The position numbers were made by a program, and so were the translations under genes. The notes under the pieces are model-generated. The model made no database searches. It saw nothing but the letters and a program-made list of their open reading frames with translations, and was not told the DNA's origin. DNA of 63,328 bases, filler included, from an uncultured Methanosarcinales archaeon (GTDB lineage Archaea > Nanobdellota > Nanobdellia > Woesearchaeales > CAZXZL01): NCBI GenBank assembly GCA_964645415.1. It is 3 parts of 3 records of this genome, joined end to end, with 100 filler letters (N's around TTAATTAATTAA, not from the genome) between each part and the next. Parts side by side here need not be neighbours in the genome. Positions count along the whole stretch, not along the records: positions 49,925 to 63,328 come from CAZXZL010000027.1; 2 more parts are not named here. One strand, written 5' to 3'. Each line of letters opens with the position of its first letter. The stretch's first letter is position 1. Positions 10,899 through 63,328 of the stretch are shown here, piece after piece.

Positions 10899-12866
10899 AT
10901 GAAAACGACTTTTGAAAAGTTCTTTTATCAAGAAATAAATTACAATATTCTTTTTAGTTTATTAATACTTATTATGATTATTACATCTTTATTTTATAAT
11001 CATTTAAATTTAAATGTAATTGGAATAATTTTATTCGTTTTAATCTCTTTAATTGCTATTTTATTTGGATTTAAAATTTCTTTATTTGTCTCTTTTTTAT
11101 CTATTATTTATCTTTTTTTTATTTCTTTTCGTTTAGGTGAATTTCAGATTGAGCTAATTCATGCCTCTTTTGGATACCTTCTAATTTCATTTATTATTGG
11201 TAATTTAAGTAATATAATAAAAGAAAAAGAAAATTCATTAGTTAGTGAAATAAAGCGGAGAAAAAACTTAGAAAAAAAACTAAGACAAAATAAAAATTAT
11301 CTTGAATCTATTTTTAAAGCGATTCCTGAAACAATTATACATTATAATCTAAATGGTGATATTTTACATGTTTGGTTTATTTCTGATAATTCTTTTTTTA
11401 CTAAAGAAGACTTAATTGGTAAAAATTTATCTGATTTATCTGAAGATATTAAAGAAAAGTTATTGGACTCTTGTGATGAAATATTAAATAATAATAGTAT
11501 TATTTCTAAAAAAATTTTTTTAAAAAAAAATAATGAAGAGAAACATTTTGTTGCTAGATTATCTTGTGTAAATAATGAGGATAATGAAAAAGAGATAATA
11601 GCTTCAATTAGAGATATGACCTCTAGGTTTAAAATTGAAAAAGATCTTAATAAAAAAAGAGCACTATTAAATCAATTATTTTCCTCAAATTTTGATGCGA
11701 TAGTACTTTTAGATAATGAAGATAATGTATTAAGAGTTAATAAATCTTTTGAGAATCTTTTTGAATATGATAAAAGTGAAATATTAGGAAAAAAAATAAA
11801 TGATTTGATTGTTCCAAATAATAAATTAAATGAGGCAAATAATCTGTCAAAAAAAGTAATAAATGGTGAAAGTATATTTAAAGAGACTAAGAGAGTTACA
11901 AAAAATGGAGAATTTATTGATGTTTCTATAACAGCAGTCCCTATTAATGTTAATGGAAGACAAATTGGTTTGTATGGTGTTTATAGAGATATTTCTAAAA
12001 GAAAAAAACTAGAGCGTAATATGGAATGGAAATCTTCTCTTTTACATGCTTTATTAAGTAATTTTCCTGATCCTGTTTATTTTAAGGACACTAACTTAAA
12101 TTTTATTTTAGCAAATGATAAAACTGCTAAATCTCTTAAATTATCTTCTAAAGAAGATCTTATTGGAAAATCTGATGAAGATTTTTTACCTAAAGAAGAT
12201 GCTAAGTTATCGAGAACTCAAGAAGAGTATGTTATGGAAAAACAAGAACCATTAAAGATAGAAAAAAAAGTTGATGATGAAAAGTGGGTATTAATGACAA
12301 AAGTTCCTTTTATTGATAGTAATTGTGAGTTAAAAGGGATACTAGGAATTAATTATGATATTTCTGGAAGAAAAAAAGCAGAAATTAAATTAAAAGAAGA
12401 AAAAGATAGAATTGAATATTTATCTTTTCATGATGAATTAACTGGTCTTTATAATCGAAGATTTTTTCAAGAAGAAATTAATCGTTTAGAAAAATCTAGA
12501 TTAAATCCTATTGCAATAATTGTTGCTGATTTAGATGGATTAAAAAAGGTTAATGATGAATATGGACATGATAAAGGAGATGAGTATATTATAAATGCAG
12601 CAAATGTTCTAAAAGAAGTAAGTAGAGATGGAGATATTTTAGCTCGTTTAGGTGGTGATGAATTTTCAATAATACTTCCTGAAACTGATGATAATGGTGC
12701 AAAATCTTTTTGTAAAAGAGCTAAAAAATATTGTAAAAATAAAGGTGTTTCAATTTCAATAGGATATGCAATTAGATATAATGATAAATCCCTTGAAAAA
12801 ATATTTAATATTGCTGATCAAAGAATGTATGATGAAAAGAGAGTTAAAAAAAATTCTAGATGTTAA
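10899..12866 (+). CDS. Membrane-anchored PAS/PAC sensor diguanylate cyclase (GGDEF)
   Basis: N-terminal TM helices, three PAS repeats, HDELTGLYNRRFF, ADLDGLKKVNDEYGHDKGD, RDGD I-site, RLGGDEF, ADQRMY. Confidence 0.95.
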   Translation: MKTTFEKFFYQEINYNILFSLLILIMIITSLFYNHLNLNVIGIILFVLISLIAILFGFKISLFVSFLSIIYLFFISFRLGEFQIELIHASFGYLLISFIIGNLSNIIKEKENSLVSEIKRRKNLEKKLRQNKNYLESIFKAIPETIIHYNLNGDILHVWFISDNSFFTKEDLIGKNLSDLSEDIKEKLLDSCDEILNNNSIISKKIFLKKNNEEKHFVARLSCVNNEDNEKEIIASIRDMTSRFKIEKDLNKKRALLNQLFSSNFDAIVLLDNEDNVLRVNKSFENLFEYDKSEILGKKINDLIVPNNKLNEANNLSKKVINGESIFKETKRVTKNGEFIDVSITAVPINVNGRQIGLYGVYRDISKRKKLERNMEWKSSLLHALLSNFPDPVYFKDTNLNFILANDKTAKSLKLSSKEDLIGKSDEDFLPKEDAKLSRTQEEYVMEKQEPLKIEKKVDDEKWVLMTKVPFIDSNCELKGILGINYDISGRKKAEIKLKEEKDRIEYLSFHDELTGLYNRRFFQEEINRLEKSRLNPIAIIVADLDGLKKVNDEYGHDKGDEYIINAANVLKEVSRDGDILARLGGDEFSIILPETDDNGAKSFCKRAKKYCKNKGVSISIGYAIRYNDKSLEKIFNIADQRMYDEKRVKKNSRC

Positions 12867-40799: not shown

Positions 40800-40995
40800 T
40801 AGAAAAAAAACTTTGTTTTTTTCAAGGTGAGAAATCTTTTGATTTCACTAACCTTTTAAATCTTTGATTTAAACAACATAAAAAACTCTTTGTTTTTCTT
40901 CGCTTTGAAAACTTTGTTTTCAATAGTTAGAAAATCTATGATTTTAGTCACTTTTAAATTTCTAATTTAATAAGTTCTAAACTTTAGTTTAGTAA
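40800..40995. repeat. Array of about 7 short palindromes with C-T-rich-G loops
   Basis: e.g. GAAATC-TTTT-GATTTC, TTTAAATC-TTT-GATTTAAA, TTGAAAAC-TTT-GTTTTCAA, AAAATC-TAT-GATTTT, CTAAAC-TTTA-GTTTAG. Confidence 0.75.
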
Positions 40996-41190
40996 TATGT
41001 ATTCGTATTCAGCTAAAGGTAGTAGAAATTTTTTCTTTCATGTGTAGAAATCAAAATCATCTTGTAGTATTCTGTCGGAATTTTATAATCTTTTTGTCTT
41101 TATTTGATAGATTTTTATTTTATATAAGTAAAAATCGACAGATTTTTTATTTTCATATATTTTTAATTCTTATAAAATTCCTCTAAATTG
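40963..41190 (+). repeat. Long repeat C copy 2 (contains TIR-bounded core 41077-41181)
   Basis: Near-identical to reverse complement of ~49600-49824. Confidence 0.9.
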
Positions 41191-41230
41191 CAATTTTATT
41201 TTTTTTATGTTAAACTAGAATAAACCAATT

Positions 41231-42115
41231 TTAAAAAAGAGATAACTGAGTATTATCATCATCACTATCATTTTTATCATAATCAATACTTTTATCACTA
41301 GAATTATTTAGTTTCCCTTCTTGACTAATTCTATCATTTAATTCATTAAACCTTCCACTATCATAATAACTAAAAAGAAACCTATCTAAAAAATCACCAT
41401 TTTCACAATCACCTAAAAAAAGATACTTCTTTTTTGATCTTTCTAACATTAATTTAGAATAATATTCCAGCTTATTTTCATACTCAGAAGACATTTTTAA
41501 ATCAATATCATTTTTAGAATCAACTCTATAATTTTGTGACTTTGGAACTTTTAATTTTCTTTTATAATCATTTTTATTATATTTAATCATATGTTTTTGA
41601 TGAATGTTATTATAACCTCTTTTAATAATATTTTTCAAATTTTCCTTAAAATCACTATTTTTTATATTTATATCATCAAAATTTGCTCTCCAAATACCAG
41701 AATAAAACATCAACTTCTCCCAATCACTAAGAGAATTTTTAACAACATCTCTCAAATAACTTGAAGAATCTCCTCTAAAATCACAAACTTGACTAGAAAT
41801 ATTATTATATCTTTTTTGTAGTTCATGTCTCCTAGACTTATAAAAACCTCTTTTATCTTTCTTAATATCTTCACAAGAAATAACACCATAAAGAGGTTGT
41901 TTCAATTCATCTTTATTAATATAACTTATACTTTTATCAATATCAAGATAACTTTTTAAAATATTTTCTAAATCATATTTAAGATATGAAAAACCTGATA
42001 AAACATTTGAAGGACTAGAAGAATCAAGATTTTTAACAGAATCTTCTAAAGTTTTATTTAAAAAATCATTTTTCACTTCAGTTACAATATCTTCTAAATT
42101 AGAATTGTTATCCAT
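41231..42115 (-). CDS. Hypothetical protein ending in QLSLF
   Basis: Long ORF downstream of the helicase; no family recognised. Confidence 0.65.
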   Translation of the reverse strand: MDNNSNLEDIVTEVKNDFLNKTLEDSVKNLDSSSPSNVLSGFSYLKYDLENILKSYLDIDKSISYINKDELKQPLYGVISCEDIKKDKRGFYKSRRHELQKRYNNISSQVCDFRGDSSSYLRDVVKNSLSDWEKLMFYSGIWRANFDDINIKNSDFKENLKNIIKRGYNNIHQKHMIKYNKNDYKRKLKVPKSQNYRVDSKNDIDLKMSSEYENKLEYYSKLMLERSKKKYLFLGDCENGDFLDRFLFSYYDSGRFNELNDRISQEGKLNNSSDKSIDYDKNDSDDDNTQLSLF

Positions 42116-49430: not shown

Positions 49431-49599
49431 AGAGTTTAGAAAGGTGTTCTTATTTAATAATTTTATTAATAATTACAGATATAATCTATTCTCAAATAAA
49501 ACAATAAAAAGAATAAAAAGATTTAAGATGACAAAAATAATCCCTTCTTTTTTCTAAATTAATTTATTCAAGATATAAATATAACAAAAATAAAACTAT

Positions 49600-49824
49600 A
49601 ACTTAGAGGAATTTTATAAGGATTAAAAACTAATAAAAACAAAGAATCTGCTGATTTGCTTATATAAAATAAAAACTTATTAAATAAAGACAAAATCATT
49701 ATAAAATTCCGACAGAATACTACAAGATGATTTTGATTTCTACTCATAAAAGAAAAGATTTCTACTACCTTTAGCTGAACACGAATACATATTACTAAAC
49801 TAAAGTTTAGAACTTATTAAATTA
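49600..49824 (-). repeat. Long repeat C copy 3 (TIR-bounded core 49608-49710), runs into contig end
   Basis: Reverse complement matches 40963-41190. Confidence 0.9.
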
Positions 49825-49924: not shown

Positions 49925-50455
49925 TATTTTTCTTTACTTAATAAAATTAGTAGAGGTGACTTTCATGCTAAATTAGGTTCACTTGAAAAAATAATTAATA
50001 ATGATTTTTTTCCTAAAAAACTTAAAGATAGTATTTCTAGAAAAAAAGATGTTGTAAGTCTTGCTAGAGAGTACAATCTTCCTTTACTTCCAGAAGTTGA
50101 TTCACATGCATTCATACCTAATAGATTAGAAGGTTTTGGTGTTTTAAAATCAAGTGTTATGGAAGATTTTGAAAAAGGAGATTTTCCAACTAAAAAACTT
50201 TTTGATTCAGAGATAATTTGTTATAAAAATAAAGAAGGTATTTCTTTTAAAGATTTTACAAAAACATTTTCAGATATATATCCTGGTTGGAATTATGAGA
50301 AAGGTCCATTTAAAAAATTAAGAGAAAAATTAAATAGGAAATTTCTTAATTATTCATATAATGATTATAAAGAAGTTTTTGAAGAAAGTTTAAATTCTCT
50401 TAATGAAATGGATATTGATGAAGTAATTAATAACACTTACAATCCTCTTTCATAA
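49925..50455 (+). CDS. 5'-partial gene, possible PHP-domain C-terminus
   Basis: Frame is open from the gap; LAREYNLPLLPEVDSHA resembles the PHP terminal DxH motif. Confidence 0.5.
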   Translation, partial: YFSLLNKISRGDFHAKLGSLEKIINNDFFPKKLKDSISRKKDVVSLAREYNLPLLPEVDSHAFIPNRLEGFGVLKSSVMEDFEKGDFPTKKLFDSEIICYKNKEGISFKDFTKTFSDIYPGWNYEKGPFKKLREKLNRKFLNYSYNDYKEVFEESLNSLNEMDIDEVINNTYNPLS

Positions 50456-50511
50456 TTAATTTTAGATGTGTAAATAAAAACTTATTTAACAAACAATACA
50501 TATATAAATTT

Positions 50512-51762
50512 TCAAGATAAGTTATTAGAAAAATGGTTAATTATTTTTTTTACTCCATTAATACATTTATCTACATCTTTTTTTGTTCCTCTTCTAAAAG
50601 GTTTAAATGCTACAAGTTTAGGATATATTTCTTCTGTTAATGGAAGGTTTCCTTTCCCATAAAACTTTGATTTACCATCAAAAACTTTTTTAGTATGTAA
50701 CATAGAATAATATTCCACATCAAAAGGAACTCCTTCACTTCTAAAAGCTTCAATAATAGTATTTTTGTCGATAGTAAATTTAGATAAATCCAATTCAAAT
50801 CTAGTACTAAAATAACCTCCTCTTTTGAATTTTTCATCATTACGTCTGTGAGAATAAATATTTGGAATTGAACTTATTTGATTTATAAAATAGTCCATCA
50901 ATATGTTTTCTTTTTTTAATACATCATTAAAATTTTTCAGTTTTGTTAAAGCTAAAGATGCATTTAAAGCACTCATCCTAAACTTATACCCTAAACCAGT
51001 ATTTTTATAGTCACTATATTTACCGGATATTTCAGATATCCTCTCATAATGCCCAAGAATAATAGATCTTTCATAATATTTTTTTGAGTCAGTAACTAAA
51101 ATACCTCCTTCTCCTGCTGGAAGAGATTTACCTGCTTGTAAGCTAAATGCACCTATATCAAAAACAGTTCCTATTTTTTCTCCATCATAAGAAGCTCCAA
51201 AAGCATGAGATGCATCTTCGATTACAGGGATGTCATTTTTTTGACTCACTTCTTTTAATTTCTTCAAATTACTTACCTCTCCCCATAAATGAGGAATCAT
51301 AATTGCAGTTGTTGAATTTGTAATTTTACTTTTTATATCTTCTACATCAGCAGTAAGAGAATCTTTTGATATTTCACAGAAAACTGGTGTACCACCTAAT
51401 TCTAAAACAGGAAGAATAGAAGACCACCATGTATAAGAAGGACATATGACTTCTTTATTCTCAAGAGCTCTTTTAGGATCAAAACCTTCACCAACTGCAA
51501 AGAGACTTGAAAAAAGTGCACTTGTTCCATTCATGAAAGATAGAACACTTTCAGAACCTAAATAAGTCTCTAAATCTCTTTCTAATTTTTTTATTACTCC
51601 TTTCTCTACAGGAAATGATAATTCTCTGTTTTTTATTAAATCTTCAATTCTTCTTATAGCTTCATCATTAAATTTAGGGTGTTTAAAAATATATTCTGCC
51701 CTTTTTTTAGATATTGATCTTTCTCCTCCTTTAAATGCAAGTTTTTTTTCATTAAGTTTCAT
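50512..51762 (-). CDS. DegT/DnrJ/StrS PLP-dependent sugar aminotransferase
   Basis: NGTSAL, IEDASHAFGA, FSLQAGKSLPAGEGG (PLP Lys), TGLGYKFRM; GGTGA RBS. Confidence 0.93.
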   Translation of the reverse strand: MKLNEKKLAFKGGERSISKKRAEYIFKHPKFNDEAIRRIEDLIKNRELSFPVEKGVIKKLERDLETYLGSESVLSFMNGTSALFSSLFAVGEGFDPKRALENKEVICPSYTWWSSILPVLELGGTPVFCEISKDSLTADVEDIKSKITNSTTAIMIPHLWGEVSNLKKLKEVSQKNDIPVIEDASHAFGASYDGEKIGTVFDIGAFSLQAGKSLPAGEGGILVTDSKKYYERSIILGHYERISEISGKYSDYKNTGLGYKFRMSALNASLALTKLKNFNDVLKKENILMDYFINQISSIPNIYSHRRNDEKFKRGGYFSTRFELDLSKFTIDKNTIIEAFRSEGVPFDVEYYSMLHTKKVFDGKSKFYGKGNLPLTEEIYPKLVAFKPFRRGTKKDVDKCINGVKKIINHFSNNLS

Positions 51763-51773
51763 TTTAATCACCA

Positions 51774-53114
51774 TTAAACATTATTTCCAACAAATAAACC
51801 TGATACTGCTCCAGAGATCACACCTTGTATTTTTCCTGTACAATCTCCAACAAAATAAATTCCTTTAGTGCTAGATCTTAAATGATTATTCAATTTTATT
51901 CTTGGAAGAAATTTTTCAAAAACAGGTCCAGTAAGAAAAGACTGAAAAGGAATATCACCAAATATTTTCTCCATCGAATTTATGAAAGGCTTAATTTCAA
52001 TTTCATAATTATCTAATACTTTATTGAAATCACAACCACAAATACCTTCAAATGTTGGATTAAATTCTAAAATACTCTCTTTTTTAGAAGGTTTTTTTAA
52101 AATATAATCATTATAACTCTGAATGGGTAATTTTTCATTATATGATAGAGAGTTAATATCTTTAGAATATTTAAGAGCATAATAGATAGAATTTCTATTC
52201 TCTGGAACTATAATTTCATTTAATATTGCAAAATTTGTTTTCTCTGTTTTTGAAGTATGACCATGTTGTCCATCAACTGATATTTCTGAACCAATTTTAT
52301 ACTTCATTATCCTTCCACCATCACAGAAACAAAAAGAACGTATATAACTATCATTAGAGGAGAAAATTATTTTTGGGTTGGGATTTTTAATTAATAAATT
52401 CTTCAGCCATTCTCTTTGAGTTTCAATTCTTATACCAAGCATTATTTTATCAGGAAACTCATATAAAACTCCTAATTTATTTAAAAGATTAAAATTTTTT
52501 ACAATACCTCTTTTTCCTATTGCTAGTATTATTTTATCAGTCTCAATAACATTATCTTCTGTAATTATCTTCCAATAGTCTTCTTTTTTTTCAATATCAG
52601 TTAATCTTTCTCCAAAGAGAATTTCTTCACAATTATCAGTTATAATCTCTTCAAGTTTAAACATAATTTTATTCAATTCATTAAATGTTATTGGTATAGA
52701 CTCAGTTGGATTAATTTTGATATTATTATATCTTATTTTTTCTTTTTTAGTATTAGAAATTTCTAAAGAAAGACCTAATTTTTGTAGAAAATTAAATACT
52801 TTTTGAGAATATTCATTTACGATATCATAACCAAGTAATTCAACTAAAGAAGAAGAGTAATTATTTTGATAATTATCAAGATTAACTTCAAAATGCATTG
52901 AAGAACCACCAAAACCACCTAAACATCTACCATTACATATTGGTTCTTTAAGGTTAGGATTATTTATGTAAGATAAATAACTATCACAAATTTTATTTTT
53001 ATATTTATTTCCAGAATCAATTAATATGGTTTTATTACCGTTTTTAGATGATGAAAAAGCTGAAAAAATCCCTGATGGTCCAGCACCTATTACAGCAACA
53101 TCATATTTCATCAT
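51774..53114 (-). CDS. FAD-dependent oxidoreductase (COG2509-like)
   Basis: VIGAGPSG, GGFGGS, AIGKRG, GIRIE, RSFCFC, TNFAIL, FVGDCTG; ATGA overlap with kinase stop. Confidence 0.85.
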   Translation of the reverse strand: MMKYDVAVIGAGPSGIFSAFSSSKNGNKTILIDSGNKYKNKICDSYLSYINNPNLKEPICNGRCLGGFGGSSMHFEVNLDNYQNNYSSSLVELLGYDIVNEYSQKVFNFLQKLGLSLEISNTKKEKIRYNNIKINPTESIPITFNELNKIMFKLEEIITDNCEEILFGERLTDIEKKEDYWKIITEDNVIETDKIILAIGKRGIVKNFNLLNKLGVLYEFPDKIMLGIRIETQREWLKNLLIKNPNPKIIFSSNDSYIRSFCFCDGGRIMKYKIGSEISVDGQHGHTSKTEKTNFAILNEIIVPENRNSIYYALKYSKDINSLSYNEKLPIQSYNDYILKKPSKKESILEFNPTFEGICGCDFNKVLDNYEIEIKPFINSMEKIFGDIPFQSFLTGPVFEKFLPRIKLNNHLRSSTKGIYFVGDCTGKIQGVISGAVSGLFVGNNV

Positions 53115-53971
53115 ATATCCCATCCTACCATATCTAAATCGAGATTAACAAGATATGGATGAATAAATCCATCAATCTCTCTATTATTTAATTTAAGACG
53201 ATTAATTCTATGTTTAGAATACTCTGAAATTAAATTAATTAAGTTACTTATAGGTTTTCCACTTAAACAACTATACTTTTTTAAAATCTCTCCAGCATAT
53301 TTTCCATAATTCCCTTCACCACTTATGATTTTTTTTGATTTTTCTTTGGTAGATTCATTTTTGAAAAAACAAACTCCTAACATTATTAAAAAATGAATTA
53401 AATCAAATTCTTGTATTCCTTCTTTTTCAAAGTCTTCCCAATCTATGACAAAATAATTATCTTTATTAATAATTAAATTAAAAGGATCAAAATCACCATG
53501 AGTAAATCCTCTATTAACAACTAAAGTTTTTCCATTAACTTTTATTTCATCTTTAGTCTGAAAGTTTTGAGAATGAAACAAAAAAAGATCTTCTGTAACA
53601 CTTTTAAGAATTTCAAGTAAACTATTTTTAGAATCTAATTCAAGTATTAAATCACTTAATGGATTTCCTTTTATTTTTTCCATAAGAAAAAAATCTGAAA
53701 AAAGTTTTATTGTAGAAGGAGTTTTAAACGGAGATAAATCTAAATTATTCATTGTTTCAAATTCATGATTAAGTATTTTTTTATCTTCAAAAACTTTTGC
53801 AATTATTTTAGGGTTAGATTCATAACTTGATTTAATATAAACTAAAAAACGATCATGATTTTGTCTCATACCACCAGAAGGTTTAATATTAAAAATGATC
53901 TCAGAAATATCATTTTCAACTTCGTTGAAATATTTCTGAATATATTTAAGTGATTTTGTAGAAAATCCCAT
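53111..53971 (-). CDS. Aminoglycoside-phosphotransferase-like kinase
   Basis: IIAKV, LMEKIKG, THGDFDPFNLI, VIDWED. Confidence 0.85.
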   Translation of the reverse strand: MGFSTKSLKYIQKYFNEVENDISEIIFNIKPSGGMRQNHDRFLVYIKSSYESNPKIIAKVFEDKKILNHEFETMNNLDLSPFKTPSTIKLFSDFFLMEKIKGNPLSDLILELDSKNSLLEILKSVTEDLFLFHSQNFQTKDEIKVNGKTLVVNRGFTHGDFDPFNLIINKDNYFVIDWEDFEKEGIQEFDLIHFLIMLGVCFFKNESTKEKSKKIISGEGNYGKYAGEILKKYSCLSGKPISNLINLISEYSKHRINRLKLNNREIDGFIHPYLVNLDLDMVGWDI

Positions 53972-53972
53972 T

Positions 53973-55217
53973 TTAATCACAATTAAAAACTTCTGATGAT
54001 TGTTTAGTTATTCCACATTTTTTACATGTAAAATTCCATCCGTCTTTAAGTTTCATTTCCTTTTCATTACAGTTTGGACAATTTAATTTTTTTTGTGAAT
54101 AATTATTATTTGATTTAACTCTTACCTCTTCATTAAGTGAATGTTTTTCATTAGGAGGAAAAGAAAACATATCATATATCTTCATTACTTTTTTCCCATG
54201 ATTTAAACCTGATTTCTTAGGTTTTTTTCTATTTTTTATACAGTTAACAAAATAATTTAATTCATTAATATAACCGTATAATGCATGGGAATGTAAACTT
54301 AGTGCACCTAAAGGTCTCCTTGTACTAGGAGTATAAAGATCAATATGATTTTTCTTACCAACAAAATTTGTCCCTCTACTATAACTTTCAACATCTCTAT
54401 TATTATAGTATCTAATTTCTTCTCCTGATTTCAATTCAATCATTGGACCTTCTCCAACAATCTTGAGTGTTTCTAAAGGACCAATTTTTTTAACTCCAGA
54501 GGTCATATGAAGTACACCTTTATATAGACCATGATCTAATAATGCAAATCCATCACTCTCTCCAGAAGTAAAATACTCCATAGATTCAGGCATATCAAAT
54601 AAACTTACTATTTGAGAAATAGGATGAACAATATCATCTAAAAAACGTCTACTTTCCGGTTTCATTAGATTACGTATATCACTAGGTAAATCAACAGCAT
54701 ATGATATCTCATAAGATTGTACTTTTCCAAAATCACTTCTTTGAATAAGTTTTTTTACTTTTTCTATAGCTGGAGCAAACATCATTTTAAAACCAATTTG
54801 AACAAAGGCATCTGAATTTTTTTCAGCTTCCTCTATAATTTCATAATGAATTCTAGAAGAGGCAGGAGGTTTTTCAATGAAAACATTTGTATTTGATTCA
54901 AGAATTTTTGCGGTAATTTCAGGATAAGTTGGTTTTCCTGTTTCAAGATCAAAACTTGTAATAACAATAACACCATCAAGATTTAAATCTAACATTTTTT
55001 TAAAGTCTGTAAAGTAATTTTTGGCACCATACTTATCAGAATACATTTTTGCTTTTTCTGAATTAATATCACATGTAGCCACTAAATTAGCTTCATCAAT
55101 AAATCTCAATGAAGGTAATATATTTCTAAAGGCATGTGATCCACAACCAATTAATCCTAAATTAATTGTTGAATCATCATTGATGATTTCTCCTTCTTTA
55201 CCTAAATTTTTTTTCAT
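53973..55217 (-). CDS. Gfo/Idh/MocA NAD(P)-dependent oxidoreductase with C-terminal zinc ribbon
   Basis: GLIGCGSH, VFIEKPPA, LDDIVH; CPNC...CKKC tail. Confidence 0.9.
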   Translation of the reverse strand: MKKNLGKEGEIINDDSTINLGLIGCGSHAFRNILPSLRFIDEANLVATCDINSEKAKMYSDKYGAKNYFTDFKKMLDLNLDGVIVITSFDLETGKPTYPEITAKILESNTNVFIEKPPASSRIHYEIIEEAEKNSDAFVQIGFKMMFAPAIEKVKKLIQRSDFGKVQSYEISYAVDLPSDIRNLMKPESRRFLDDIVHPISQIVSLFDMPESMEYFTSGESDGFALLDHGLYKGVLHMTSGVKKIGPLETLKIVGEGPMIELKSGEEIRYYNNRDVESYSRGTNFVGKKNHIDLYTPSTRRPLGALSLHSHALYGYINELNYFVNCIKNRKKPKKSGLNHGKKVMKIYDMFSFPPNEKHSLNEEVRVKSNNNYSQKKLNCPNCNEKEMKLKDGWNFTCKKCGITKQSSEVFNCD

Positions 55218-56464
55218 AATTCCACCTCAATCTTTGGAAAAATTTCTTTTGCAATCTGATAACCACCAGGTTTATCTTTTATGAAGTATTTCAGTTTCTT
55301 TCTTTGTTTAAGAATAAGATTCTTTCTAAATGTTTCATTACCTAGACTTTTTATTAACAAAGATTTTCTCTTTAAATCTTGATAGACTGGGTGTGAAGTG
55401 TTTTTCATTAATTCACTTATTTTTTCATAAATATAGTGAACTTCACTTTCTTTTGTACTTTTTAATTCTTCAAAATAATCTGATAATAATAATTTTGGAA
55501 ATGTACCATCTTGACTTGAAGTAGAGTTCATGAGCCTTTCATAATTAGGATAATGTCCATCATGTTGTTCAGGTAGAAAGAATACAGGGGTTTCATAATA
55601 AAGTGATTCATAAAGTGAAGTTATTGATGGAGGACACAAAAAACCTATAGCTCGATTAATGTTTTTTAGCATATCTTTATGAGAAAGTAATCCACAATTA
55701 AATTTAGTTCTTTCTTTCACTTTCTTCATAACTTTAGGATTTCCTACAAGAATAGGTTCTATTCCGTCTAATTCTTGAAGAGGTTCTTTCAATAATTTTA
55801 AACAGAATAATCCATACTCTAAAGCCATATCAACATCAACAATAGGAGATAATTGACCAGAAAGAGAGATTAATAATTTATCTCTTTTAATTTCTTTATC
55901 TTTATAACTATCGTCAATAATAGGATTTACTTTTTTGAATTTTCTATTTTGAAATTTACTTTGGTTAGATTTTTTTCCAGGATATTTTTGTAAAAAAGAC
56001 AAATCTGAAAATTGATGAGTTACTTTTTGTCTATTATGTGGATCTATTTTATCTAAGGTATTTATAATCATTTCAGGAGAATAATTATATAAAGAATTAT
56101 CCAAATCTTTCAATAAGTTTTCAAAAGAATTATCCCAATTCCAAAACCAATGTAAACTATCAATAGAAAAAACATTCATGTTGTATTTTTTTGCTAAAAC
56201 TACAGAATAAGGTTCCATAACACTAATTAATCCTACATAATTATTAGATTTAATTAAATTAATTAGTTTATTTTTTGTAGATTCATATATGTTATTAAAT
56301 AATTCAGAGTTACCTTTGACAAACGTAAGAGCTGTATCATCACCAATGAAATCAAATTCAGCTTCATTACCATATTTACTTTTCAAAATAGATACTATTG
56401 TAACTCCTTTAGAGACAGGCCCAAATCCAAAACTTTGAGCAGTAATTAAAAATCTTGGTTTCAT
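55214..56464 (-). CDS. GT-B glycosyltransferase resembling cytosylglucuronate (CGA) synthase family
   Basis: AQSFGFGPVSK, ISVMEP, IDSLHWFW, VNPII, LSHKDML, PSITSLYES...PVFFLPEQHDGH. Confidence 0.65.
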   Translation of the reverse strand: MKPRFLITAQSFGFGPVSKGVTIVSILKSKYGNEAEFDFIGDDTALTFVKGNSELFNNIYESTKNKLINLIKSNNYVGLISVMEPYSVVLAKKYNMNVFSIDSLHWFWNWDNSFENLLKDLDNSLYNYSPEMIINTLDKIDPHNRQKVTHQFSDLSFLQKYPGKKSNQSKFQNRKFKKVNPIIDDSYKDKEIKRDKLLISLSGQLSPIVDVDMALEYGLFCLKLLKEPLQELDGIEPILVGNPKVMKKVKERTKFNCGLLSHKDMLKNINRAIGFLCPPSITSLYESLYYETPVFFLPEQHDGHYPNYERLMNSTSSQDGTFPKLLLSDYFEELKSTKESEVHYIYEKISELMKNTSHPVYQDLKRKSLLIKSLGNETFRKNLILKQRKKLKYFIKDKPGGYQIAKEIFPKIEVEL

Positions 56465-57130
56465 TTATTCCACCTTTTTATCTCTTTTTTTACCTAAAAA
56501 AGACCAAAATATCTGTTCTTTACTCTCATCTGGCAGTGGTATATTTTTAAATTTGTACATTTCATTAATGATAAAAAATGGTTTAAAAGTATTAATTAAA
56601 TCATCAGAAGTAAGTCTAAAAGGACCATCACCTGTTTTTGAAGGAGGGATATCATTAGAAAATCCTCTAAGAAAGAACAAACCATTCTTTTTTAAAATGT
56701 TAAAAACATTAGAAGCATATTTAGTTCTATCAGAAACAGGGATATGATGAAAACAATTCTTATCAATAACTAAATCAAAATTTTTCGAAATACTTTCAAT
56801 ATCTATTTCTAAAAAATCTTCATGGATAAAATCAACATCTGTTGAATAAAATTTAGCCAAATGTTTAGCTTTATTTAAAGCGTTTTCATTAAAATCAACT
56901 GCAGTTACATCCATTCCTTGTCGAGAAAGATAAACAGACTCAGTACCTACTCCACATCCAATTTCTAAAACTTTTAATCCAACGTCAATTTTTCCAGATA
57001 TTACCTTTTTTAAAAGTACTATTCCAACTGCACCAGTAACCCATGGAGTTTCTTTGATTGAAAGTTCCTGATTATATTGTTCTTCAAAATAAGATTCAAC
57101 TACTTTTCTATTTTCTTGCCAATTTGACAT
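56465..57130 (-). CDS. Class I SAM-dependent small-molecule methyltransferase
   Basis: TPWVTG, VLEIGCGVG, VTAVDF, FDLVIDKNCFHHI. Confidence 0.9.
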   Translation of the reverse strand: MSNWQENRKVVESYFEEQYNQELSIKETPWVTGAVGIVLLKKVISGKIDVGLKVLEIGCGVGTESVYLSRQGMDVTAVDFNENALNKAKHLAKFYSTDVDFIHEDFLEIDIESISKNFDLVIDKNCFHHIPVSDRTKYASNVFNILKKNGLFFLRGFSNDIPPSKTGDGPFRLTSDDLINTFKPFFIINEMYKFKNIPLPDESKEQIFWSFLGKKRDKKVE

Positions 57131-57136
57131 TATAAA

Positions 57137-58285
57137 TCACCTAAGATATTTTTTCAATACTTTGGGAATATCAAAACTACCAGAACTATTCTGATAATTT
57201 TCAATTATCCCTGAAATTACTCTTGGGATAGATAAACCACTTCCATGAAGGGTATGAAGATATTTTTCTTTACCACTTAATGTCTTATATTTTGCGTTCA
57301 TCCTCCTTGATTGAAATTCTCCTAACATAGAACAGCTTGATATTTCTACCCACTTCTTAGAACCAGGAAAATATATTTCAAAGTCTCTGGTTTGTTTTGA
57401 AGCTATACCCATATCATCAGAAGATAAAAGAATTTCACGATAAGGTAACTTTAAACATTCAATTATTTCTCGACAACTATTTAAAAGATGATTATATTCT
57501 TCCTTCACATTATCAGATGTTGTTGCTTTAAATAACTCTACTTTACCAAATTCATGAAGTGTAGTATATTTCGTAATTTTTTTATCTCTTTCTACTCTAA
57601 AAGATCTTGAATAACCTACTAACCTTAAAGGGAGATCATTTTGAGAAAAAGAATAATCACTAAGTAAGTTAGTAATTTGTATTTCAGCAGTTGGATTCAA
57701 ATAGAGATTTTCATTTTCTATTTTATATACATTATTTTTCTTTCTAGGAAAAGCTCCAGTTTGAAACATAGAAATATCATTAACAATTGTTGGAACAGAA
57801 ACTTCTTCAAAACCATTCTCAACATTTTTTTCAATCATAAAGTTTATTAAAGCTCGTTCTAATTTTGCTCCTTTTCTAAAAAGAAAGGGAAATCCTTCAC
57901 AATAAATTCTATCAGCAATATCTTTTTTAAATATCCCACAATCTTCTCCTATTTTTTTATAATCATTTGGAGAAGACAAATTTTTATTATATTCTCTTTT
58001 ATTTATAACTTTAAAACCATCAGATGATTTAGGCACAATTTCTAATGTTTCATTTGAAATTTTCAAGTAATTAAGAATCAAATCCTTCAAATTTCCTTTT
58101 AAATTTTTTTCACCATTAATATAGCTTCTTGAAAGATTTATAACATCATCAGGATTAATATCATCTTTTTCATTTAATTTATCATATGAATTAAGGAAAT
58201 TAACGTAAAAAGAAGTTGAACCTCTAATTTTTGTTTGATTGTAGAAATAATCTCTATTATTAACTAATCTATTAGGATCTAACAT
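57137..58285 (-). CDS. Divergent seryl-tRNA synthetase paralog with shortened N-terminal arm
   Basis: LERALINFM, LNPTAE, FRVER, LHEFGKVE, EISSCS, FQSRR, HTLHGSGL..PR, IENYQ. Confidence 0.85.
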   Translation of the reverse strand: MLDPNRLVNNRDYFYNQTKIRGSTSFYVNFLNSYDKLNEKDDINPDDVINLSRSYINGEKNLKGNLKDLILNYLKISNETLEIVPKSSDGFKVINKREYNKNLSSPNDYKKIGEDCGIFKKDIADRIYCEGFPFLFRKGAKLERALINFMIEKNVENGFEEVSVPTIVNDISMFQTGAFPRKKNNVYKIENENLYLNPTAEIQITNLLSDYSFSQNDLPLRLVGYSRSFRVERDKKITKYTTLHEFGKVELFKATTSDNVKEEYNHLLNSCREIIECLKLPYREILLSSDDMGIASKQTRDFEIYFPGSKKWVEISSCSMLGEFQSRRMNAKYKTLSGKEKYLHTLHGSGLSIPRVISGIIENYQNSSGSFDIPKVLKKYLR

Positions 58286-58309
58286 GTTATTTTCTGAAAA
58301 AAAGTACGA

Positions 58310-58318
58310 TTTATAAAA
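58310..58318 (-). promoter_or_regulatory. Putative archaeal TATA box of the 7-gene operon
   Basis: TTTTATAAA on minus strand ~25 nt before ATG 58285 (leaderless-type spacing); AT-rich background limits certainty. Confidence 0.45.
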
Positions 58319-58470
58319 TTAACGAATTGTAACCATATTATAGTAGATATAAACCTCTAAAAAAAATAATTCCGTATTAATCTATTATAAATTTTTTTAA
58401 ATCTAAACAAACTAATAAATTACTTTTGTTGAAAGAATCCTGAAATTTTCATTTCCTTTTAATTTTTTTA

Positions 58471-58926
58471 TTAATCAACACAATATAATATTATTGAATC
58501 TTGTTTTAATATAAAGTAAAAATCTTTATCTTTTAGTTCTTTATTATAAAATCTTTTTGGAAATCGAATATTAATTCCTTCATTTCTCCAACCACATAAA
58601 TCTTCTCCATAAATATTCAAAAAACTATTTTTTTTAGACTTAGGTTTTAAAGATATATATTCAACTTTTACCTCGTTATTTTTTATATCAACATCAGGAA
58701 ATTTTTCTACTAGGTCTTTTGTTTCATCACATTTATCTTCTAATTTAGTAGAACCCCAAGTAGTTTCATTTAATTCTTTCAAAACATCTTTATCAGAATT
58801 AAAAACTTTAGCTAATTGCAATATAGAAAGTTTAATAATAATTTCTTTTTGTTTATAATCACCAATAATTTTTACTGTTTTACTATCATCCAACAACTCC
58901 ATATCATTGTATTTAATCTCAATCAT
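58471..58926 (-). CDS. Hypothetical protein
   Basis: 151-aa ORF, no motif recognised. Confidence 0.6.
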   Translation of the reverse strand: MIEIKYNDMELLDDSKTVKIIGDYKQKEIIIKLSILQLAKVFNSDKDVLKELNETTWGSTKLEDKCDETKDLVEKFPDVDIKNNEVKVEYISLKPKSKKNSFLNIYGEDLCGWRNEGINIRFPKRFYNKELKDKDFYFILKQDSIILYCVD

Positions 58927-58998
58927 AGATGTATTTTAAAATTATAATTTATAATATTTTTTATTAAAATCAATAAACTCATTAATTATTTCTTTCAA

Positions 58999-59030
58999 TT
59001 AGATGATTTTGATAGAAAATGTCTTTAGCA
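58999..59030 (+). repeat. Short repeat B copy
   Basis: TTAGATGATTTTGATAGA...CTTTAGCA matches 22210-22268. Confidence 0.6.
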
Positions 59031-59037
59031 ATAATAA

Positions 59038-59610
59038 TTAAATAAAATTATATCCTAATTTTTTTAGAGGATTAAAATATTTATTAGTATTTTCTTTACG
59101 TAATTTAATAATCTCTTTTAATAAATTTTTTTTAAGATTTCCCTTCAGTAATTTTAAATCATTTATGTCTTTTTTTCGACTTAAAGAAATTTTATGAACA
59201 ACTATACCTTCCTTAGGTACAATAAAAATTTCTTTTCCATAAAAATTTATCTTTTCTTTATTATAAAATTGCTTTTCAAAAGAATTCTTCTGAGATATTT
59301 TATTTGGAATAAAGCTAATTGCTTCTATTTCTTGTCCTTTAAAATTTAAATCAAAATAGTAATCTTTTGTAACAAAATCACCTTTCTTTATACTTCTTTT
59401 TTTGACTTTCTTATTAAACTTATTAGCTAACTTATTCAAGCTTTCATAATTCATTAAAATATCTATATCATCAAACTTTCTTTTTCCATTAGTATAGATA
59501 TATATTCCAAAACCACCAAAGATAAAATAATCTAAGTCTTTTAGATAATTTATAAATTCTAAGATTACACATCTTTTTTCAACACTTAAAGAATTATCAT
59601 TAAACGTCAT
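59038..59610 (-). CDS. Pol-beta-superfamily nucleotidyltransferase-like protein
   Basis: FIFGGFG..Y...RKFDDIDIL, K....RKKDINDL. Confidence 0.75.
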   Translation of the reverse strand: MTFNDNSLSVEKRCVILEFINYLKDLDYFIFGGFGIYIYTNGKRKFDDIDILMNYESLNKLANKFNKKVKKRSIKKGDFVTKDYYFDLNFKGQEIEAISFIPNKISQKNSFEKQFYNKEKINFYGKEIFIVPKEGIVVHKISLSRKKDINDLKLLKGNLKKNLLKEIIKLRKENTNKYFNPLKKLGYNFI

Positions 59611-59661
59611 ATAAGATTATTAAAATAATATTATAAAACAGTTATGATTAAAAATTAATAA

Positions 59662-60183
59662 TTCAAGAAAATCTTTTTTAAAATTAAAAAATCATTAATA
59701 AAAGAAATTACAAAAAAGACACTATTTGATTCTAAAACAGTATTAGTCACATTAATGTTTACATTAGCTTTTGTTCAATTAGTAATAGCATCTGAACATA
59801 ATATGCTTCAAAGAGAATCAATATTTGAAACAATAGCACTTTTATTTAGTAATTTTTCTGTAGATTATATTTTCATATCACCATTTATTGGCGCATTTGG
59901 TTCTTTTGTAACAGGATCAGCAACAGTTTCAAATTTAATTTTTGGTTCTCTTCAATATAATTTAGCAACAGTAAATAATATTTCAACAAGTCTTATTTTA
60001 GCTCTTCAATCATCGGGTGCAGCATTTGGAAATATGATAGCAATTCATAATGTAATTGCATTATTAGCACTTTTAAAATTAAAAAATCAAGAAAGTAAAA
60101 TCATAAAAAATAACTTAAAAGTATGTTTATTATTTTGTTTAATAGCATCATTTATTGGTTTTATAATTTATTTTTTAATTTAA
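59662..60183 (+). pseudogene. lctP: L-lactate permease C-terminal fragment (5'-truncated)
   Basis: SPFIGAFGSFVTGSATVSNLIFGSLQ, ALQSSGAAFGNMIAIHNV; frame opens at 59662 with no start codon; N-terminal two-thirds absent. Confidence 0.75.
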
Positions 60184-60190
60184 TCAATCT

Positions 60191-61159
60191 TTACAGATTA
60201 TAAATTTCTCCATCAATATTATTAAAAAGATTATGTAATGGAAGTGTTCTTTGATCAAACCATGGTTGATAAAAAGTATTTTCAATTTCTTCTCTGAATT
60301 CAGAATCTGCATCTAAAACATCAAAAGCTGATTGTAATCTAATATAATGATCATAATAAGCATCATATCTTCCCTCTTTATAATCAGGTGAATTATTCAA
60401 AACATATTCACTCAGATAGATTTGTTCTCCAACAGCTAACATTTCAGAGATATTTCTTCTTACCATTTCTCTTATTACATGATTATATGTTTCATCACCA
60501 TAATTATCCATATCATATAGATCTTTCCATCTTAAATCAGTATATCCAAAAAGGTATGGTTTAGGTTGATTCATAATTTTTTTTCTACTAAATGCTCTTA
60601 TATGATTATATTCATGAAAAATTATACTCTTAAAATCATCTTCATTTTCAAGATCAAATGCATTTTCATATGCTGAAAGTATAACCTCTAATTCAGTTTC
60701 ACCTTTATCTTCAGGATTTATATTCTGAAAAGTTATACTCATAAAACCTTTTGGTCTTTCATTACCTCTGTAAGCTACTCTTTTTAACTGACTTGGTGGA
60801 GAAATATCATATTCATCCTCCATTCTAAGTATCATTTGCTCAAAATAGTATTGTTTTAATTTTTCATTATTTGTTTCTCTTATAAAATCATAATCAATCT
60901 CTTTTTTAACAGAATTTTTTTCTGAAAAAGGATAATTATAATAAGTAAATGTTTCAACTTCACCATTTTCAACTTTTTCAAGTTTTTTACTAAGTTCTAT
61001 CATTCCTTTTTCTTCATTTCTAATAATTGATTCAAGATTAGTATTTCCTTTCCATAAATCATCTATATCTTGTGATGACGGAGAAATAAGAGTCAAAACA
61101 AGCGTAAGTGAACCAATAGTAAGTCCTTTTATTAGTTTTGAATTTCTAAATAATTTCAT
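60191..61159 (-). CDS. Secreted/membrane-anchored protein with HExxH zincin motif
   Basis: N-terminal hydrophobic helix; IFHEYNHI and downstream SEM. Confidence 0.6.
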   Translation of the reverse strand: MKLFRNSKLIKGLTIGSLTLVLTLISPSSQDIDDLWKGNTNLESIIRNEEKGMIELSKKLEKVENGEVETFTYYNYPFSEKNSVKKEIDYDFIRETNNEKLKQYYFEQMILRMEDEYDISPPSQLKRVAYRGNERPKGFMSITFQNINPEDKGETELEVILSAYENAFDLENEDDFKSIIFHEYNHIRAFSRKKIMNQPKPYLFGYTDLRWKDLYDMDNYGDETYNHVIREMVRRNISEMLAVGEQIYLSEYVLNNSPDYKEGRYDAYYDHYIRLQSAFDVLDADSEFREEIENTFYQPWFDQRTLPLHNLFNNIDGEIYNL

Positions 61160-61280
61160 TTTAAATAAAATATTATCTATTAATAAGTAATAACGTATTT
61201 TATCATATTTAATTTTTTTTATTTTTAGAATATAATAAAGAAAAACCACATAGAAAAGAAAAAAGAAAAAAAGAAAAAAA

Positions 61281-61967
61281 CTACTTCCTATTAAAGTTAT
61301 GAAGATACTTAGAAATTTCAGCAGCCATATTTTGTACAGGCATAGTTTGAATCCATACTTTACCAGGACCTTTAAGAGTAGTTAAAAATAATCCTTCACC
61401 ACCTAAAAACATATTTTTAACACCCTTAACTCTTTGAATATTCATCTCAACAGACTCTTCAAAAGCACCAACAGAACCAGTTTGAACTTTCATAACTTCA
61501 TTTGGACCAAGTTCTCTTTCAACATATTCACCATCCATCTCAATTACTGCATGACCATTACCAGTAAATTTTTGGAGAATAAATCCCTCACCACCAAATA
61601 AACCAGCACCAAATCGTTTTTGAAAGTATACATCATAATTTACATCTTTTGTAGCACATAAAAAAGATCTCTGTTGACAAATAATTGGTTTTTTGCTAAC
61701 ATCAAAAACAATAATTTTTCCAGGATAAGTATGACCAAATGCAACTTTTGCATCATCTTTAGTTGCAATAAACTCTGCAATAAAAAAATCACCTCCTGAA
61801 AACTTTCTCTTAACTGCTCCAATCACACCACCTTTTGCCTTAGTTTTCATATCAATCTTACTATCCATCCATTGCATAGAACCAGTTTGAGCCCAAATGT
61901 ATTCTCCTCTATTCAAAGAAAACTCAATCATAGGCATTACTGAGCCATGTATTTTATAATCCTTCAT
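61281..61967 (-). CDS. AIM24 (TIGR00266) family protein
   Basis: GSMQWM, GLFGGEGFILQ, FLGGEGLFLTTLKGPGKVWIQTMP. Confidence 0.93.
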   Translation of the reverse strand: MKDYKIHGSVMPMIEFSLNRGEYIWAQTGSMQWMDSKIDMKTKAKGGVIGAVKRKFSGGDFFIAEFIATKDDAKVAFGHTYPGKIIVFDVSKKPIICQQRSFLCATKDVNYDVYFQKRFGAGLFGGEGFILQKFTGNGHAVIEMDGEYVERELGPNEVMKVQTGSVGAFEESVEMNIQRVKGVKNMFLGGEGLFLTTLKGPGKVWIQTMPVQNMAAEISKYLHNFNRK

Positions 61968-62079
61968 TTTTAACCTCCAATTATTTAAATAACAATTTAA
62001 GATTTAATAAATTTTACTTTAAGAGTCATTCTAAAAAAAACATAGATATCTTTATATTAATCTTTAGTGTTAAAAAAGT

Positions 62080-62229
62080 ATGAAAAACAATAAAAAATAT
62101 GAATATAAATGTAAAGCTATAATTGGTTTTGGTAAAAAAACAACTAGAATCTTAAATGAATATGGAGATAAAGGTTGGGAATTAGTCTCAGTAACATGGA
62201 TATGGCATTACTTTAAAAGAGAAAAGTAA
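62080..62229 (+). CDS. DUF4177-like small protein (49 aa; not in ORF track)
   Basis: KYEYK...LNEYGDKGWELVSV....YFKR. Confidence 0.8.
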   Translation: MKNNKKYEYKCKAIIGFGKKTTRILNEYGDKGWELVSVTWIWHYFKREK

Positions 62230-62250
62230 ATTATCTTCGTTTAATGTAAA

Positions 62251-62372
62251 AGTGTATTCGTTTAATTGTCTTTCAGAGTATGTATTCGTTTTATGCTAAA
62301 GAAGTGTGTATCCGTTGATTGTCTTTCAGAGTGTGTATTCGTTTTATGCTAAAGAAAGTAGAAATCTTTTCC
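62251..62372. repeat. ABAB tandem repeat of 26-27-bp GTATTCG units, related to repeat C leader
   Basis: Units at 62251, 62277, 62303, 62330; TGTATTCGT....GCTAAAG..AGTAGAAAT shared with ~40998 and ~49770. Confidence 0.85.
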
Positions 62373-62570
62373 TCTAATTATAATAAAAGTAATTTTATAG
62401 AATTTATATAAAAGTGTTTTAGAAACATCAGTGCTATAAAGAGTATAGTACATGTTTTTACCAATTTTTATTAAAAAATTGATCTAATTCATATATGTCG
62501 AAATATTTCATTAAAAAATATTTCTCTTAAATGATATTAATAAATAGAAAAAAAAAGAAAAAAAGAAAAT

Positions 62571-63328
62571 CTAATCAATAGATAATCTCATCATATAATC
62601 ATCTCCTTCATCAGTAATGACATACAAATAACCATCAGGAGACTCAATAACATCTCTAATACGATATTCGTAATCACTTAATAAAGGCTCAACTTCTTGA
62701 ACAGAATTATTATCAACCTTAAAATGACCTAAATACCTACCAGCTAAATTACTAACAAATAAATCACCAGTTATCTCTTCAAATCTATCACTTGTATAAA
62801 AAGTCATACCAGATGGAGGAAAACCACCAGAAGTACAATTCCAATAATAAAGAGGATCAACTATATCATCATTTTCATGAGGCATATTACCTACAGGATT
62901 TTCAGTACCATATTCACATCCATAATGATATAAAGGCCAACCATAATTACCACCTTTAACTATTGCATTAATCTCATCACCATCTCTTTCACCATGTTCA
63001 CTTTGCCAGATTTCATTTGTATAAGGATTTAAAACCATTCCTTGAGAATTTCTATGACCATAAGAATAAACTGCATCACTATACTTAGAATCATTCACAA
63101 AAGGATTATCATTAGGAATACTTCCATTCTCATAAAACCTTAAAGTAGAACCCAAATCATTACTTAAATTTTGAGAAGGATGACTTTCACTAAAATCTTT
63201 AGAACCTCTATCACCAACAGTCATATAAACATAACCATCTCCATCTAAAGTTACTCTAGAACCAAAATGAGCACCAGATTCAACATAAGGCTTAGCAGTA
63301 TAAATAACTTCAAAATCATCTAATGAAT
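62571..63328 (-). CDS. PQQ-dependent glucose/sorbosone dehydrogenase (5'-partial, runs off window)
   Basis: HFGSR upstream of listed ORF, YSYGHRNSQG, EHGERDGDEIN, NYGWP, RIRDV. Confidence 0.93.
   Translation of the reverse strand, partial: SLDDFEVIYTAKPYVESGAHFGSRVTLDGDGYVYMTVGDRGSKDFSESHPSQNLSNDLGSTLRFYENGSIPNDNPFVNDSKYSDAVYSYGHRNSQGMVLNPYTNEIWQSEHGERDGDEINAIVKGGNYGWPLYHYGCEYGTENPVGNMPHENDDIVDPLYYWNCTSGGFPPSGMTFYTSDRFEEITGDLFVSNLAGRYLGHFKVDNNSVQEVEPLLSDYEYRIRDVIESPDGYLYVITDEGDDYMMRLSID

Follow-up and report, generated by a model that had tools for sequence, protein, structure and literature searches.

A conserved seven-gene operon with a seryl-tRNA synthetase paralog and a possible role in aminoacyl-nucleoside synthesis in an archaeal genome

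The operon and the genome that carries it

The window analysed here is a stretch of 63,328 nucleotides from the genome of an uncultured archaeon (GCA_964645415.1), consisting of three contigs joined by spacers. On contig C27 (positions 49925-63328) it carries an operon of seven genes headed by a paralog of seryl-tRNA synthetase (SerRS; other synthetases are named likewise). The operon is real, conserved and mobile; each of its parts has a precedent, and their combination is apparently undescribed. We put at even chances that its product is a seryl-aminohexosyl nucleoside, a seryl-AMP mimic that inhibits SerRS. The seven intact open reading frames (ORFs) occupy 50512-58285 on the minus strand, and the features are listed below in the direction of transcription.

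58310..58317, minus strand: TATA-like box (TTTATAAA), about 25-32 nt before the first ATG
57137..58285, minus strand: SerRS paralog, 382 aa, with a class II core; proposed aminoacyl ligase or transferase
56465..57130, minus strand: class I S-adenosylmethionine (SAM) methyltransferase, TPMT/thiol-methyltransferase-like, 221 aa; optional tailoring gene
55214..56464, minus strand: GT-B glycosyltransferase (GT), 416 aa, a putative distant BlsD/MilC relative; proposed nucleobase N-glycosyltransferase
53973..55217, minus strand: Gfo/Idh/MocA NAD dehydrogenase, 414 aa, with an EKPP motif; proposed keto-forming sugar step
53111..53980, minus strand: APH/RIO-like kinase, 289 aa from a GTG, the ATG at 53971 being the likelier start; HGDxDP and DWE motifs conserved
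51774..53123, minus strand: FAD-dependent oxidoreductase, 449 aa, HI0933-like and FAD-depend_C, both below cut-offs; optional
50512..51774, minus strand: DegT/DnrJ/EryC1/StrS pyridoxal-phosphate aminotransferase, 420 aa, EDASHA and SLQAGK intact; the ATG at 51762 has a Shine-Dalgarno (SD) sequence

The seven co-directional genes and their order, first read from the sequence alone, agree with the ORF calls, and Pfam backs the labels of six of them (tRNA-synt_2b, class I methyltransferase, Gfo/Idh/MocA, APH/RIO kinase, FAD protein and DegT). They are separated by gaps of 0-6 nt or overlap slightly. The ribosome-binding sites of GGTG type and the TATA-like box of that reading were also recovered. 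An SD core (GGTG, GAGG or GGAG) precedes four of the six internal genes, compared with 139 of 545 genes in the genome and 3.8% of random windows, while the box ahead of the first ATG recurs before 51 of the 545 genes and in 0.8% of random windows. Since the first gene has no SD sequence and a TATA-like box lies upstream, the transcript start is probably of the leaderless archaeal type. Matches to a sigma-70 promoter were no better than chance at the operon, and no terminator was found there. All seven frames and the catalytic motifs are intact, and the motifs are kept in relatives. As had been stated, none of the seven genes encodes a radical SAM enzyme or a CMP hydrolase.

The host genome comprises 961 kb in 79 contigs, with a reported completeness of 100% and contamination of 1.46%. 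Archaeal EF-2, EF-1alpha, L7Ae and TFE were found above cut-off on another contig of the stretch, which agrees with the archaeal label, and these markers together with the genome size suggest a DPANN-like host. C27 overlaps contigs C72 and C61 by 55 nt, and one public contig covers the whole operon in a single piece. The three metagenome runs listed as containing C27 are soda-lake samples from one study, and no RNA run was listed; in the best of the three, which may itself be the source sample, C27 is evenly covered by reads.

For the assignment of C27 to this genome, tetranucleotide composition was compared across 82 windows of equal size. Of these, 63 deviate more from the genome mean than the operon does, though its tetranucleotide z-score correlation falls in the low tail, with 6 of 82 windows as low. 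No archaeal marker gene was identified on C27, C72 or C61, and C27 is not physically linked to the contigs that carry the markers; for this reason its binning to the archaeal genome is supported but not proven. Most relatives of the operon are bacterial, which would also suit a contig from a co-binned low-GC bacterium. We give this explanation, or that of a silent operon, a very slight chance. GC content, GC3 and codon use of the operon lie within the genome range (9th-57th percentile), the TATA box with internal SD sequences is an archaeal layout, the reported contamination is low, and the intact frames and motifs speak against silence. Furthermore, a truncated remnant (L014) shares its contig with archaeal exosome and proteasome genes. 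Over 1417 nt it matches an intact cluster (L022) at 88% identity, so a second archaeal lineage has carried the cluster. In this remnant (L014:1020-1460) the Gfo/Idh gene stops after about 135 codons and the remaining cluster is missing downstream.

Several other features were observed around the operon and in the archaeal genome. A family-less ORF spans the C72-C27 junction (49925-50455, plus strand; G000:C72:734-2018) and converges on the operon; by eye it has His-rich PHP-like motifs, and it is preceded by a second APH/choline-kinase-like gene. A DUF6036 nucleotidyltransferase is encoded upstream of the operon (59038-59610, minus strand), and at 59755-60183 (plus strand) only the C-terminal part of a lactate permease is present. 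A PAS and GGDEF diguanylate-cyclase-like protein is encoded at 10899-12866 (plus strand). Contig C11 holds an inverted pair of repeats of about 280 nt, 88% identical (49546-49824 and 40963-41240), parts of which recur at the ends of several contigs; they may represent a small mobile element.

The synthetase paralog and the glycosyltransferase

The SerRS copy in the operon is an extra one, because a housekeeping SerRS of 446 aa is encoded on contig C41 (G000:C41:3205-4545; L002:970-2310). The operon copy scores 282 bits on TIGR00414, below the cut-off of 301.65, and belongs to a separate subfamily of 33 clusters, none of which has the coiled-coil arm PF02403 and whose named members come from Patescibacteria. 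Five sequences of this arm-less type form one branch with support of 100/99. In the structural model the SerRS core is present with short N-terminal helices (6-16 residues), and the long tRNA-binding arm is gone. In E. coli SerRS the seryl contacts are T237, E239, R268, E291 and S391 with F287 stacking, according to the accessible part of the source (bioRxiv 10.1101/586255). The counterparts in the paralog, mapped via an S. aureus alignment, are T199, E201, R230, E250 and S349 with F246, and all are kept. The motif-2 loop is three residues shorter and its second Arg has become Thr, while most of the ATP- and serine-binding residues are retained. The earlier identification as a SerRS paralog thus stands, with its serine pocket kept and the housekeeping copy elsewhere, and the protein fits a predicted serine ligase or transferase that would not recognise tRNA-Ser as an ordinary SerRS does. 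The 33 clusters fall into three groups: 5 carry T-A-E and keep Ser349, 6 carry T-I-E and have Pro instead of that serine, and the other 22 show a third pattern. In a sample of 401 genomes of a candidate-phyla class, a scan that had no positive control found no such paralog at 1e-75.

The host's own SerRS has an unusual pocket and belongs to a rare type. At one motif-3 position it carries Tyr; of 56 archaeal relatives, chosen for their similarity to it, 55 have Asn there. It also has S-x-G-N-V in place of S-C-S-N-C. Its closest homologs are 45-49% identical and include metagenome-assembled genomes (MAGs) labelled Heimdallarchaeota and Diapherotrites. On average it is 38% identical to 25 relatives (25 of 29 fetched), compared with 44-57% among the relatives themselves; the host ProRS is ordinary, at 51% versus 48-56% among 29 relatives. 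As a lead, we suggest that in this host a resistant SerRS may have taken the place of the ordinary one.

The GT has no Pfam or NCBIfam match. Its database relatives number 15 at 32-39% identity, and the wider family has 205 representatives at E up to 1e-30. The AlphaFold model (pLDDT 89) has a GT-B fold whose best solved match is YojK (Z 23.8, root-mean-square deviation 4.4, 327 aligned); no solved CGA synthase was among the fold-search matches, and searches against the sequences of solved structures gave nothing useful. The CGA synthases BlsD and MilC join a base to UDP-glucuronic acid, as described in the available parts of the reports (PMC3715490; PMC11784345). Weak matches to their model, TIGR04467, were found in 15 of 16 aligned members of the GT family (best E 6.5e-11), and in the ESM Atlas the GT compares with clusters named CGA synthase at TM 0.76-0.77 and with GT28/GT1-type clusters at 0.61-0.66. 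These results favour the earlier view of a CGA-synthase-like enzyme: judged by sequence and fold, the GT is a putative distant relative of CGA synthases that falls outside the family proper, and the joining of cytosine to UDP-glucuronic acid is at most a prediction for it.

Further indications on the substrates come from fusions. Relatives of the GT are fused to SLOG (L018, P0017, P0029), Gfo/Idh (P0058) and DegT (P0101) domains. The SLOG fusions retain a G-R-x-G-T-x-x-E stretch, which from LOG enzymes we take to mark a base-releasing nucleotide hydrolase. UDP-glucose dehydrogenase genes adjoin two related loci (L019, L023), and another is on host contig C60. The GT in the window has no fused SLOG; a stand-alone SLOG is on contig C40, from a family present in 13 of 14 control genomes. 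PF05014, purine nucleoside phosphorylase and the MilB-like family were all not found in the host genome. In the miharamycin system, MihI unites a nucleotide hydrolase activity with a base-glucuronosyl transferase (PMC11188666), an arrangement that the GT-SLOG fusions of related loci also suggest; our core loci have no nonribosomal peptide synthetase (NRPS) or polyketide synthase. Cytosine, named in the sequence-only reading as the base, is therefore not supported, and purines are left open by the SLOG fusions and MihI.

Related loci and their synthetase genes

Pattern scans gave 12 genome loci and 26 metagenome loci, or 37 after removal of one duplicate. Eight of them form a core set (L005, L006, L012, L018, L019, L022, L023, L030). 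In three loci from Alphaproteobacteria MAGs with small genomes (L005, L006, L012), each of the seven functions is encoded and the gene order is unchanged, at 28-46% identity; their Gfo/Idh and kinase are fused. The other five are metagenome contigs with the core of GT, kinase and DegT, four of them with Gfo/Idh as well, and the flanks of L018 and L023 are bacterial. Of the eight core loci, six have the methyltransferase and four have the FAD gene. A C-terminal ribbon of the form C-x2-C ... KDGW ... C-x2-C (53973-54090, minus strand, in the window) is conserved in the Gfo/Idh family of the clusters. Each of the 29 further loci is either short or has different partner genes. The first reading had missed that the cluster is a mobile family, present also in Alphaproteobacteria and other small-genome bacteria, and that related loci have a second, full-length synthetase. 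Its distribution is rare: a strong GT match was found in 1 of 401 genomes of the host's own phylum (the host itself; the tallies include three genomes marked unpublished, G395, G242 and G243), and in 1 of 80 and 2 of 251 genomes in two alphaproteobacterial orders. Weak matches in the own phylum (G173, G322, G016) have other gene contexts.

The cluster abuts tRNA genes in L006 and L023, and an IS110 element lies inside L019. No relatives were found in IMG/VR with three profiles, nor of the GT in plasmids or phages; plasmid matches to the Gfo/Idh protein reach only 27-29% and are nearly all from Rhizobium. The patchy spread and these neighbours, together with the lack of a detected exporter or Trojan-horse carrier, would fit a compound that acts inside its producer, as an inducible translation block or an anti-viral metabolite. 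We rate this as very unlikely: of the 45 proteins scanned from clusters and flanks, PADLOC models match only five, and two of these matches are to generic methyltransferase domains; within the operon they match only one of seven genes, through the methyltransferase domain of mad2, with no single system called. Dedicated resistant synthetases would, moreover, defeat self-poisoning.

A second possibility is that the operon modifies a macromolecule or the envelope of its own cell and yields no diffusible compound; the aminoacylated amino-sugar would then be attached to a glycan, a lipid, a tRNA or a DNA base. GT-B, Gfo/Idh and DegT proteins are common in glycan pathways, and among NCBIfam models UDP-GlcNAc 3-dehydrogenase and PseC match best, though below cut-off. 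The exporter scan was negative, and some synthetase paralogs are known to modify tRNA or protein (PMC9437257). The main support comes from lone GT relatives near glycan genes. The core loci themselves look different. The order of their genes is conserved away from flippase and AglB genes, as had been anticipated, and no flippase or oligosaccharyltransferase was found among the scanned neighbours of the eight loci, some flanking ORFs being unscanned; likewise, no flippase, oligosaccharyltransferase or group of several GT2/GT4 genes is on C27, C72 or C61. With the GT nearer to CGA synthases than to GT28/GT1 clusters and SLOG-fused in several loci, and with so rare and patchy a distribution, we regard self-modification as quite unlikely.

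Synthetase genes lie in or beside the block at all eight core loci, usually as a degenerate copy by a full-length one, and a full-length-type SerRS or GlyRS is present at all eight, some possibly being housekeeping genes. The arm-less SerRS occurs with GlyRS in L005, L006, L012 and L019 and with SerRS in L022; L018 and L023 have a SerRS with an AspRS-like paralog that has lost the motif-2 Arg (FVHG or FVGG for FRAE), and L030 has only the start of a SerRS (136 aa) at the contig end. The pocket of the paralog follows its neighbour: the Pro-type, in which the contact to the serine hydroxyl is lost, is found in the four loci that adjoin GlyRS, and the serine-type of L022 adjoins SerRS. In genome G403 there are three GlyRS systems, two of them flanking the cluster. 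The cluster and glyQS there have 33-34% GC versus 40-41% in the flanks, and glyQ had no match in 18 genomes of the same order.

Other gene arrangements were also seen. Small-genome Alphaproteobacteria alternate between two GlyRS types, dimeric and tetrameric (L115-L120, L012, L118; G496-G502, G403), with glyQS only in G497, G499 and G502 and dimeric GlyRS only in G496 and G498. PheRS (L007, L016) and MetRS (L027) genes adjoin GTs outside the core set. A candidate-phyla cassette (L007:7299-14393, L008:936-5620, L039) has two Gfo/Idh genes, a GT, a short-chain dehydrogenase/reductase and a sugar-isomerase TIM barrel, followed in L007 by PheRS alpha and beta. In L016:3152-11818, L035 and L040, GT relatives have split transketolase genes next to them, together with a radical SAM gene, a monomeric PheRS or an NRPS module; these are further undescribed nucleoside-type clusters.

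Proposed pathway and its significance

In the pathway we propose, the GT would glycosylate a free nucleobase from a UDP-hexose donor, which is probably UDP-glucuronic acid. The kinase would then phosphorylate the intermediate, and Gfo/Idh and DegT would convert one sugar hydroxyl to an amine. For the kinase step, kanosamine offers a parallel. The arm-less SerRS would load serine on the amine, from seryl-AMP or seryl-tRNA, with the nucleoside in the AMP site as in AcmF, and the methyltransferase and FAD enzyme would tailor the product. Because the amino-nucleoside would sit in the AMP site of the paralog, the product would be a seryl-AMP mimic by construction and would inhibit SerRS. In the relatives the amino acid would be swapped, probably for glycine, and the adjoining full-length synthetase would be the donor and/or the resistance gene; in the host archaeon the altered housekeeping SerRS may take this part. 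We infer the base, the amination site and the target. As for the site, C3' is likelier than the C4' proposed earlier, since the best NCBIfam matches of the Gfo/Idh, all below cut-off, are sugar 3-dehydrogenases and Pur10 and Pur4 of puromycin aminate C3'. The roles first assigned to the methyltransferase and the kinase likewise found no support.

To our knowledge, the chemistry of tRNA-synthetase-inhibitor antibiotics has been described so far from bacteria such as Streptomyces. The closest known systems, as they appear in the accessible parts of the reports, differ from the operon in several respects. In ascamycin (AcmF/AcmD) a truncated class II paralog acylates a nucleoside amine, and the cognate full-length synthetase in the cluster supplies the aminoacyl-tRNA and resists the product (PMC12945691; PMC4257720). 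However, that system is AlaRS-based and acts on a ribose sulfamate, whereas here it is SerRS- or AspRS-based and the hexose would come through a CGA-synthase-like GT; our paralog also keeps most adenylation residues, and the window locus has no full-length partner. Albomycin shows the same pairing of a transfer paralog with a full-length donor and resistance synthetase (PMC8323819; PMC9032320). Together with SB-217452 (AbmF/AbmK, AbmF being likened by description) it shares a seryl amide on an amino-sugar nucleoside, SerRS as the target, an extra SerRS and a methyltransferase, but the window operon lacks thioheptose enzymes, carbamoyltransferase, radical SAM and a siderophore NRPS. The degenerate synthetase paralog typical of such clusters is present here by sequence, and its ligase activity is predicted. 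Blasticidin S, mildiomycin and gougerotin have a related GT and a DegT, with serine on an aminated pyranosyl nucleoside in mildiomycin (PMC3715490; PMC11784345). When compared with them, our cluster has no BlsE/MilG radical SAM, BlsM/MilB hydrolase, MilH/MilI or GouJ/GouK, adds Gfo/Idh, the kinase and the synthetase paralog, and has a GT far under the TIGR04467 cut-off. Searches of an open-access library brought up no cluster that unites a CGA-synthase-like GT with Gfo/Idh, kinase, DegT and an arm-less SerRS, and none was found in the available part of the synthetase-paralog review (PMC9437257).

Puromycin leads to a further alternative. There an NAD dehydrogenase (Pur10) and an aminotransferase (Pur4) give a 3'-amino nucleoside that is then aminoacylated (PMC11641026, available part), though the route starts from ATP, uses Pur6 and acetylation resistance, and has no GT or synthetase paralog. 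The same chemistry in our operon could thus yield a mimic of the aminoacyl-tRNA 3' end that targets the ribosome, like puromycin, gougerotin or mildiomycin, with the full-length synthetases only supplying activated amino acid. The CGA-derived blasticidin S and mildiomycin inhibit protein synthesis, as the accessible text has it (PMC3715490; PMC11784345), and the AspRS-like paralog without the motif-2 Arg would need a donor. Such a ribosomal target seems rather unlikely to us, because the eight loci share no resistance gene of the acetyltransferase or exporter type (one GNAT lies near L019), the extra GlyRS copies of G403 exceed the need for a donor, and the arm-less SerRS keeps most of its ATP- and serine-binding residues.

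A number of observations, besides those on the binning of C27, weigh against a SerRS inhibitor as the product. The full-length synthetase could be a donor only, and would then be uninformative on the target, and the host locus has no second, full-length synthetase. The match between pocket and neighbour rests on about three independent events, and 22 of the 33 arm-less clusters, those of the third pattern, have no known gene context. The Tyr-type SerRS of the host occurs also in G119, a genome without a GT match, and in 15 of 119 database homologs. G497, G499 and G502 have the glyQS clade of G403 but not the cluster, and in G401 and G402 this clade is the sole GlyRS found. For the GT, the window protein itself has no TIGR04467 match at E 0.1, and none of 38 further relatives reaches the curated cut-off of 300 bits (best 127 bits). 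Five GT loci without the core (L015, L020, L021, L024, L027) lie near glycan-type genes, and three of these five are the nearest tree neighbours of the window GT, with weak support (0.84). Finally, a hydropathy scan found no exporter in or within 3 kb of the eight loci, or on C27, C72 or C61, and the earlier suggestion of use against host or competitors is not supported.

If a seryl-AMP mimic is indeed the product, it would represent a new natural scaffold for tRNA-synthetase inhibitors with a predictable amino acid and a probable glycyl version, made by organisms thought too reduced for such chemistry. The pathway comprises five to seven soluble enzymes with common cofactors and is therefore rebuildable in vitro, and aminoacyl-nucleoside synthesis would gain tools in the arm-less SerRS family and the CGA-synthase-like GTs. 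For the family as a whole, we tentatively propose, with less than even confidence, that a modular synthetase-inhibitor operon is passed between ultra-small archaea, bacteria of candidate phyla and small Alphaproteobacteria of the gut, keeping one hexose-nucleoside scaffold and swapping the amino acid through the arm-less paralog and a matching resistant synthetase. The amino acids would then be serine, glycine and perhaps others, given the PheRS and MetRS genes that adjoin related GTs. This would place antibiotic-type chemistry in host-dependent minimal cells, where the compound could be one means by which episymbionts act on hosts, rivals and viruses, and it could help explain the exchange of synthetase types among them.

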